Shown here: positions 11,000-11,184 of the stretch, in pieces
How the letters are laid out: the number at the start of each line of letters is the position of its first letter
Numbering within the stretch: the stretch's first letter is position 1
NCBI RefSeq assembly: GCF_056712565.1
Contig: NZ_CM160072.1
Direction: 5' to 3' (one strand)
Length of the DNA: 64,000 nt
Translations under genes and position numbers: made by a program
Notes under the pieces: model-generated
Told to the model about the DNA's origin: nothing
The model's database searches: none
Seen by the model: the letters and a program-made list of their open reading frames with translations, nothing else

Positions 11000-11184
11000 G
11001 GCGGATGCGGCGTGAACGCCTTATCCGCCCTACATGTGCAATCCCGAAGGCCAGATAAGACGCGGCAAGCGTCGCATCCGGCAATTGCACCGCGCCACTG
11101 GCGGATGCGGCGTGAACGCCTTATCCGCCCTATATGTGCAATCCCGTCGGCCGGATAAGACGCGGCAAGCGTCGCATCCGGCAT
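11000..11184. repeat. BIME: two tandem ~100-bp units, each carrying an inverted REP pair (GCGGATGCGGCGTGAACGCCTTATCCGCCCTA.. / ..GGCCGGATAAGACGCGGCAAGCGTCGCATCCGGCA)
   Basis: Direct repeat with period 100 bp visible at 11000..11099 and 11100..11184, differing at a few positions; REP consensus recognisable. Confidence 0.85.

Follow-up and report, generated by a model that had tools for sequence, protein, structure and literature searches.

The eut operon of the Escherichia coli strain studied here contains two near-identical repeats of about 100 bp between eutG and eutH, and the question is what these repeats are and whether they matter for the expression of the operon in which they lie. The operon is carried on a 64,000-nt stretch of contig NZ_CM160072.1 (assembly GCF_056712565.1), called the window below. 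The repeats are, with next to no doubt, a BIME-2 (bacterial interspersed mosaic element), that is, four repetitive extragenic palindromic (REP) sequences arranged as two 100-bp units in the eutG-eutH intercistronic spacer. The complete account, of a BIME-2 within the eut operon together with the modest effects that would be expected from its class, is highly probable. The class of element has already been described, E. coli K-12 carries the same two-unit element, and the locus is an ordinary one with nothing essential that is new. The initial annotation called the array a tandemly duplicated BIME, a phrase that describes the usual state of a BIME-2, in tandem copies, and not a special recent duplication.

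The array was found at 10999-11183 by Tandem Repeats Finder, with a period of 100, 1.9 copies, 95% matches, 0 indels and a score of 342. A repeat search gave two 88-nt copies, 10999-11086 and 11099-11186, which are offset by 100 nt and are 94% identical, and also found inverted arms typical of REP pairs within the array. The two units differ from each other at 5 positions. The initial annotation had placed two near-identical units of about 100 bp at 11000-11184, inside the eut operon between eutH and eutG; the coordinates are right to within 1-2 nt and the location agrees with the NCBIfam and PGAP gene calls. The array occupies the eutG-eutH spacer (10969-11184, 216 nt) of the operon, which is on the minus strand. 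An 801-nt query covering 10700-11500 was 100% identical to E. coli ATCC 11775 / DSM 30083 (NZ_CP033092.2) and was matched at 99% identity or more by 160 E. coli records. The same query matched a median of 7 places per E. coli genome, indicating dispersed copies. In the order in which they are transcribed, the parts of the spacer are as follows.

11184, minus strand: one A, which separates the stop codon of eutG from the first REP and makes with the next U two unpaired nucleotides before the stem (sequence, fold).
11146-11183, minus strand: unit 1 Z2-type REP, in the iREP orientation on the mRNA strand, TGCCGGATGCGACGCTTGCCGCGTCTTATCCGGCCGAC (pattern match, 0 mismatches); hairpin of -22.8 kcal/mol, z = -5.5.
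11134-11145, minus strand: unit 1 tail-to-tail linker (S position), GGGATTGCACAT, 12 nt (sequence).
11099-11133, minus strand: unit 1 Y-type REP, in the REP orientation on the mRNA strand, ATAGGGCGGATAAGGCGTTCACGCCGCATCCGCCA (pattern match, 3 mismatches); hairpin of -20.9 kcal/mol, which is the first hairpin of the naRNA4 match described below.
11084-11098, minus strand: head-to-head linker between unit 1 and unit 2, GTGGCGCGGTGCAAT, 15 nt (sequence); it aligns to the naRNA4 linker with a 4-nt insertion.
11046-11083, minus strand: unit 2 Z2-type REP (pattern match, 0 mismatches); hairpin of -20.6 kcal/mol, the second of the hairpins in the naRNA4 match.
11034-11045, minus strand: unit 2 tail-to-tail linker, GGGATTGCACAT, the same 12 nt as in unit 1 (sequence).
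10999-11033, minus strand: unit 2 Y-type REP (pattern match, 2 mismatches); hairpin of -20.9 kcal/mol.
10969-10998, minus strand: REP-free 30-nt eutH leader, ATAAATAACAACTAACAGGGAGTAAAGGCG (sequence, fold).

The order of the unit is Z2-type REP, 12-nt tail-to-tail linker, inverted Y-type REP and 15-nt head-to-head linker. The four REPs, of 35-38 nt, fold as imperfect hairpins whose stems have an internal loop or mismatch. Their energies lie between -20.6 and -22.8 kcal/mol (z between -4.1 and -5.5), and the fold of the full spacer is at -110 kcal/mol (z = -3.8). The stem of the first hairpin begins 2 nt past the eutG stop codon (stem from 11182; stop at 11187-11185). At the other end of the spacer, the fold leaves the eutH Shine-Dalgarno sequence, GGGAG at 10977-10981 (minus strand), essentially unsequestered by the hairpins. 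The eutH leader itself is identical after the BIME alleles and after the BoxC alleles described below, and its counterpart in some Citrobacter, Yokenella and Pluralibacter is the REP-free spacer of 27-32 nt.

Assignment of the array to a family rested on two kinds of search. One used search patterns for Y and Z2 REPs, and the Rfam model of the REP325 unit provided independent confirmation. The Y pattern matched at 11000-11033 and 11100-11133 (plus strand) and the Z2 pattern at 11049-11082 and 11149-11182 (minus strand); each pattern had 3-4 matches in the window against 0.00 expected in 100 shuffles. The Rfam family RF02564 (naRNA4) is modelled on the 77-nt Y-linker-Z2 unit of REP325, an array of six units between yjdM and yjdN (PMC4550694). 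It matched 11049-11130 on the minus strand at 75.5 bits, above its gathering score of 59.5, over positions 1-77 of the 77 in the model. This match, the sole one at gathering level to any Rfam family in the window, covers the Y REP of unit 1, the head-to-head linker and the Z2 REP of unit 2. REPs of E. coli are imperfect palindromes of 30-40 nt with a GTAG tetranucleotide and are of types y, z1 and z2, and a BIME-2 comprises z2 and y REPs in inverse orientation, joined by a short S linker and repeated in tandem with a copy number that varies between strains (PMC3333891). The eut array has imperfect hairpins of that length, the GTAG/CTAC foot and many extragenic copies; its y and z2 REPs alternate in orientation, its linkers of 12 nt and 15 nt are short and unlike the long L linker of BIME-1 to which integration host factor (IHF) binds, and its units are in tandem and variable in number between strains. 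Given the pattern matches and the naRNA4 match, the element is a two-unit BIME-2 with REP325 as its closest characterised relative. Each unit is an inverted REP pair, as first proposed, and the possibility that the units might not be of REP type was dismissed because all four hairpins align to Y or Z2 REPs.

Outside the array, the Y and Z2 patterns matched just two further sites in the window, both intergenic. One is a solitary Y-type REP at 40495-40528 (plus strand). The other, at 47005-47097, is a Z2 REP with an inverted Y REP and a 25-nt tail-to-tail linker, upstream of a minus-strand open reading frame (ORF) at 47112-47858 and about 400 nt past 46594, where the last of the listed long plus-strand ORFs ends. 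Since there are further intergenic copies in the window and a median of 7 places per genome, the four REPs belong to a dispersed family.

The tetranucleotides of the window strain are partly degraded. In unit 1 the Z2 REP has CGAC for CTAC (11149-11146) and the Y REP has ATAG for GTAG (11133-11130), while in unit 2 the Z2 REP has CTTC for CTAC (11049-11046), leaving GTAG intact only in the unit 2 Y REP (10999-11033). In K-12 the tetranucleotide is intact in each of the four orthologous copies, and thus the four REPs of the array are slightly decayed members of the family by descent. It was also observed that three of the four changes separating the window units from the unit consensus hit the GTAG/CTAC tetranucleotides; the chance of three of four changes falling in 16 of 185 positions is roughly 0.002, a post hoc figure, with CTTC being common to other lineages.

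The initial annotation expected copy number to differ between strains, and this was examined by searching 5,426 complete E. coli genomes for the two flanks alone, taken together as a 500-nt query. Both flanks were in one place in 5,394 of 5,411 records and were unjoined in the remaining 17. A census was made of 60 rows spread evenly down the ranking of the 5,411 records, as a systematic sample. Spacer length was converted to unit number by checking the sequence of 1-3 examples in each length class, the remaining rows being assigned by span alone. The classes were as follows.

216 nt: 2 units, 20 of 60 rows.
115-116 nt: 1 unit, 18 of 60 rows.
315-316 nt: 3 units, 7 of 60 rows.
416 nt: 4 units, 1 of 60 rows.
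514-516 nt: 5 units, including a BL21 derivative, 5 of 60 rows.
99 nt: truncated unit, O157:H7 and relatives, 3 of 60 rows.
163-169 nt: no REP, BoxC repeat pair, 5 of 60 rows.
Flanks not joined: deletion from the REP into eutG, 1 of 60 rows.

Copy number is therefore strain-variable as anticipated, with alleles of 1, 2, 3, 4 and 5 units found in the sample and in its sequenced representatives. K-12 MG1655 has the same 216-nt two-unit spacer as the window strain. The arrays of different strains differ in length by exact multiples of the 100-bp unit, and the units within a strain share variants: CCAGCC is present in all units of K-12, BL21 and one further record (L007), and CTACAGG in all units of another (L009). 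The five units of BL21 resemble the two of K-12 plus three additional copies of the second unit, and one four-unit array resembles a recombinant of two haplotypes. The whole-unit steps and the variants shared within strains indicate that the array probably changes length by unequal recombination or slippage between its 100-bp units. A contribution of the REP-associated transposase TnpA_REP to such change is possible. There is no curated repeat feature for the eutG-eutH spacer in the copy of the MG1655 RefSeq record consulted, a full-text literature search on eutG, eutH and REP gave nothing on the eutG-eutH element, and eut is not mentioned in the 2026 REP preprint (bioRxiv 10.64898/2026.03.23.713779).

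The site was also suspected at the outset of being a target for insertion sequences (IS) and recombination, and examples of both were found. In E. coli JNE12-007 the array has five units, and an IS1397 element (IS3 family) lies in the loop of its fourth Z2 REP (837-2786 of that record's extract), in the same orientation as the eut operon. Such large insertions are rare, as shown by the 17 of 5,411 records without joined flanks. IS1397 inserts specifically into REPs (PMC3333891). E. coli MRSN346647 has a deletion with its end-points in the element and in eutG, whereby eutG at about codon 289 (..GCGATGGCGCATC) is fused to a Y REP (CGCATCCGCCAGTGG) and is annotated as a pseudogene (extract 4251-4700). 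This deletion looks like the product of microhomology-mediated recombination between the coding sequence and the REP.

The REP-free alleles of about 8% of the sampled genomes (5 of 60 rows) contain instead an inverted pair of BoxC/PIT/TMECO motifs, for example in strains 103 (567-735 of extract L006) and VCSW5 (351-513 of extract L011). The BoxC core CCCTCGCCCCTTTGGGGAGAGGGTTAGGGTGAGGGG is identical to K-12 TMECO entries 7, 11 and 15 in Table 1 of PMC4666352, and BoxC itself occurs in dispersed copies, at a median of 15 places in each genome. It occupies the exact slot of the BIME, between 'TAA A' and 'ATAAATAACAAC...'. Two unrelated repeat families alternate at one site between eutG and eutH.

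The same junction was then compared across the Enterobacteriaceae by scanning species-representative genomes with a degenerate pattern for the EutH N-terminus, which gave 42 loci, with the eutG stop codon located in 40. The spacer is REP-free and 27 nt long in five Citrobacter species-representative genomes, including C. amalonaticus S646, and REP-free and 32 nt long in Yokenella and one Pluralibacter. In Morganella it is 45-48 nt with a small unrelated hairpin, and in Salmonella enterica subsp. diarizonae it is 67 nt with a single Z2-like REP abutting the stop codon. Pairs of Y and Z REPs are found in the C. freundii group (119 nt) and the C. koseri group (123 nt), and palindromic units of a Klebsiella type in Klebsiella (194-216 nt). 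The Escherichia genomes found, with spacers of 116-578 nt, have BIME-2 of the E. coli type in 1 to about 5.5 units. On this survey the basal spacer is about 30 nt long, and the junction has repeatedly been filled by each lineage's own REPs. Among ten Y-linker-Z copies from this junction in Escherichia, Citrobacter and Pseudocitrobacter, compensatory double changes were found in 5 of 21 stem pairs. These changes fit maintenance of the hairpins, but such changes are also a property of REP families across the genome. One 'Citrobacter' metagenome-assembled genome (L026) has a spacer and an EutG C-terminus identical to those of E. coli and is probably a mis-binned E. coli contig.

Whether the array affects the operon depends in the first place on its being transcribed. 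No sigma-70-like promoter was found in or beside the spacer in a promoter scan, and a terminator scan found no hairpin followed by a U-tract within 10969-11184, the hairpins running into GGGAUU, GUGGCG or AAUAAA. As there is neither a promoter nor an intrinsic terminator in or beside the array, it is expected to be co-transcribed with the eut operon. The gene calls are NCBIfam matches at equivalog level, except that for eutE, which is to a subfamily model, and they agree with the PGAP annotation of the identical record. The neighbouring genes are as follows.

13209-14612, minus strand: eutE (NCBIfam subfamily model, PGAP).
12362-13198, minus strand: eutJ (NCBIfam equivalog, PGAP).
11185-12372, minus strand: eutG, the gene upstream, for an ethanol dehydrogenase (NCBIfam equivalog NF011998 at 889 bits, cut-off 556; PGAP coding sequence).
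11187-11185, minus strand: the TAA stop codon of eutG (sequence).
9742-10968, minus strand: eutH, the gene downstream, for an ethanolamine permease (NCBIfam equivalog NF011665 at 872 bits, cut-off 574).
8342-9745, minus strand: eutA (NCBIfam equivalog, PGAP).

In K-12 MG1655 the cryptic prophage CPZ-55 splits the eut operon between eutA and eutB (3692-10481 of the extract), unlike in the window strain, where these two genes are adjacent.

The initial annotation noted that such elements can act as mRNA stabilisers or partial terminators, and at the level of the class this agrees with the literature on REPs. At REP325 the upstream yjdM mRNA is raised about 3-fold at the native locus and the downstream yjdN mRNA lowered about 10-fold, partly in a Rho-dependent manner, and the array yields a ladder of hairpin-ended RNAs (bioRxiv 10.64898/2026.03.23.713779). 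Genome-wide, upstream/downstream expression ratios are higher for tandem gene pairs separated by REPs. BIME-2 is reported to be a site of gyrase binding and cleavage in vivo (PMC3333891, PMC2817692), and REPs aid Rho-dependent termination (PMC2817692). By analogy, the hairpins in the induced eut mRNA would block 3'-to-5' exonucleases and so stabilise the eutS-to-eutG segment, and would, with the help of Rho, partly attenuate transcription that reads through into eutHABCLKR; at the DNA level, gyrase is expected to bind the element. REPs are reported to reduce translation of the upstream gene only where their distance to its stop codon is below 16 nt (Liang et al. 2015, summarised in PMC12306157). 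Given that the first eut REP lies within 15 nt of the stop codon, its stem beginning 2 nt past it, terminating ribosomes may stall there and EutG output may be lower. The element should therefore, if it behaves like its relatives, mildly favour eutS-to-eutG over eutH-to-eutR RNA, and it might depress EutG synthesis. The chances that the element has a measurable regulatory effect at all are about even.

Several observations weigh against such an effect, and most of these are equally what would be expected if the same BIME-2 were neutral, a non-autonomous selfish or hitch-hiking repeat that landed in a tolerant spacer, grows and shrinks by recombination and has no meaningful effect on eut. In a proteomic study of induced W3110, with EutQ set to 100, the downstream proteins EutB, EutC and EutL were at 37, 24 and 39 and the upstream proteins EutE and EutG at 27 and 7 (PMC11334477). 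W3110 was assumed to have the two-unit allele, like MG1655. The abundance of the downstream Eut proteins indicates that there is no strong polarity across the element. Among natural alleles the array varies from one truncated unit to five units, the BoxC pair sits in the same slot without any REP in the genomes counted above, and some Citrobacter, Yokenella and Pluralibacter have a bare spacer of 27-32 nt. TnpA_REP requires GTAG/CTAC for binding and cleavage (PMC3333891), and it is there that three of the four REPs of the array in the window strain are changed. The effects of REPs depend on context and terminal REPs do not give a global gain in mRNA half-life (Harris et al., bioRxiv 10.64898/2026.03.23.713779). 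The eut operon is silent unless both ethanolamine and B12 are present, and thus standard maps of RNA 3' ends miss the locus. Set against neutrality are the retention of some REP by every Escherichia lineage found and by most of the Citrobacter, Klebsiella and Salmonella genomes found, the compensatory changes in the stems, the roughly 3- to 10-fold effects of REP325, the closest studied relative, on its neighbours, and the genome-wide expression bias of tandem pairs separated by REPs. EutG is in addition the least abundant core enzyme in W3110, which fits an effect of a stop-proximal REP without proving it. A neutral BIME-2 is a serious possibility, though not the favoured one. Given the protein levels in W3110 and natural alleles that run from no REP to five units, the effect of the element cannot be large, and any effect on eut expression must be modest and dispensable.

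The remaining explanations would give the sequence a different identity. The RF02564 match above the gathering score could mean that the element encodes a nucleoid-associated non-coding RNA belonging to the naRNA4 family, which would bind HU and condense the chromosome, and Qian et al. proposed that DNA homologous to REP325 could serve nucleoid condensation (PMC4550694). However, the Rfam model is a generic Y-linker-Z2 REP pair, so that a match shows membership of the family and not function, and with no promoter-like site in or near the element any RNA would have to arise by processing of the inducible eut mRNA. Moreover, Harris et al. (2026) found that REP325 and its naRNAs had no effect on nucleoid volume, that there were no REP-REP contacts and that no stable HU-naRNA4-DNA complex was formed. 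Such a gene is very improbable. Slightly less probable again is a reading in which the array terminates the eut transcript behind eutG, either as an intrinsic (Rho-independent) terminator or as a strong stop. Four GC-rich hairpins in a row might suggest one, but none is followed by a U-tract and the scan gave only a weak AT-rich palindrome inside eutH; furthermore the essential eutBC genes and the activator gene eutR need read-through, and EutB, EutC and EutL are abundant on induction. There is hardly any chance that the array arose as a duplication in sequencing or assembly, or that it encodes a small protein. The initial annotation had named such a duplication as a possible flaw; the array is present in independent assemblies including that of K-12 MG1655, and an assembly artefact was excluded on the grounds that the units differ at 5 positions, K-12 has the same spacer, 160 records match at 99% or more and one third of the sample has two units. 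As to a gene, an uninterrupted ORF of 66 codons (10984-11184, minus strand) does span the array, with its ATG overlapping the eutG stop codon (TAAATG) and its end 15 nt before the eutH start. However, its length varies with the allele, at 12, 30, 66 or 84 amino acids (aa), since a period of 100 bp is not divisible by 3 and shifts the frame. The ORF has no NCBIfam match, and no coding sequence is annotated between eutH and eutG in 13 fetched E. coli records apart from the IS1397 transposase in JNE12-007. The 66-aa ORF was rejected as a gene and is regarded as a by-product of stop-poor REP sequence.

It is conceivable, though doubtful, that the number of units (0 to 5 or more, plus BoxC) acts as a heritable and reversible rheostat for the distal half of the operon. 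Each extra pair of hairpins would lower read-through to eutBC and the auto-activator gene eutR and so shift the threshold and kinetics of induction. Lineages would differ accordingly, for instance O157:H7 with its truncated unit, K-12 and B2 strains with 2 units, and BL21 with 5. In Salmonella, eutR reportedly depends on read-through from the main promoter, in the autoinduction model of Roof, Sheppard and Roth. If such a rheostat existed, the recurrent lineage-specific REPs in Escherichia, Salmonella, Citrobacter and Klebsiella would reflect selection and not tolerance.

E. coli has several hundred REP/BIME sites, and this one matters little alone. It does offer a natural allelic series, from a truncated unit through 1-5 units to BoxC, in an inducible operon of 17 genes in which the regulator is the last gene. 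Such a series suits a quantitative test of the relation between the number of REP hairpins and polarity within an operon, a point raised by the 2026 study of REP325. The 100-bp length polymorphism is a potential typing marker and a trap for short-read assembly, and the 66-aa ORF is a possible trap for gene callers. Expression of eut matters for gut colonisation by pathogenic E. coli, and strain differences in the spacer could contribute to differences in the use of ethanolamine.

Among known systems, the REPs between malE and malF and between hisJ and hisQ are likewise hairpins between the genes of one operon, although the loci and the numbers of REPs differ. From the work of Higgins et al. 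in 1982 and Newbury et al. in 1987, these REPs are said to protect the upstream mRNA and so to produce differential expression. The eutG REP also resembles stop-proximal REPs such as that of nrdAB (Liang, Rudd and Deutscher 2015, summarised in PMC12306157), being well inside the 15-nt limit given there. The BoxC/PIT/TMECO intrastrand-triplex repeats (PMC4666352) share the slot and are also dispersed intergenic repeats, but they are an unrelated sequence family (CCCTC...GGGGAGAGGGTTAGGGTGAGGGG) and are not present at this site in the window strain. With the BIME-2 family of Gilson, Bachellier and Hofnung, as defined again by Ton-Hoang et al. 2012 (PMC3333891), the element shares alternating Y and Z2 REPs, a short tail-to-tail linker, tandem extragenic units, a strain-variable copy number and use as a target by IS1397; there is no essential difference, although three of the four GTAG/CTAC tetranucleotides of the array in the window strain have point changes. 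The comparison with REP325 (RF02564; Qian et al. 2015; Harris et al. 2026) is the closest. REP325 has six units and 12 hairpins against two units and 4 hairpins at the eut locus, the eut head-to-head linker is 4 nt longer, and the dual terminator and stabiliser effects are measurements made at REP325 only. Nevertheless, both are built from the same Y-linker-Z2 unit, matching from end to end, and both lie between co-directional genes of one operon and have their transcription started at the upstream gene's promoter.

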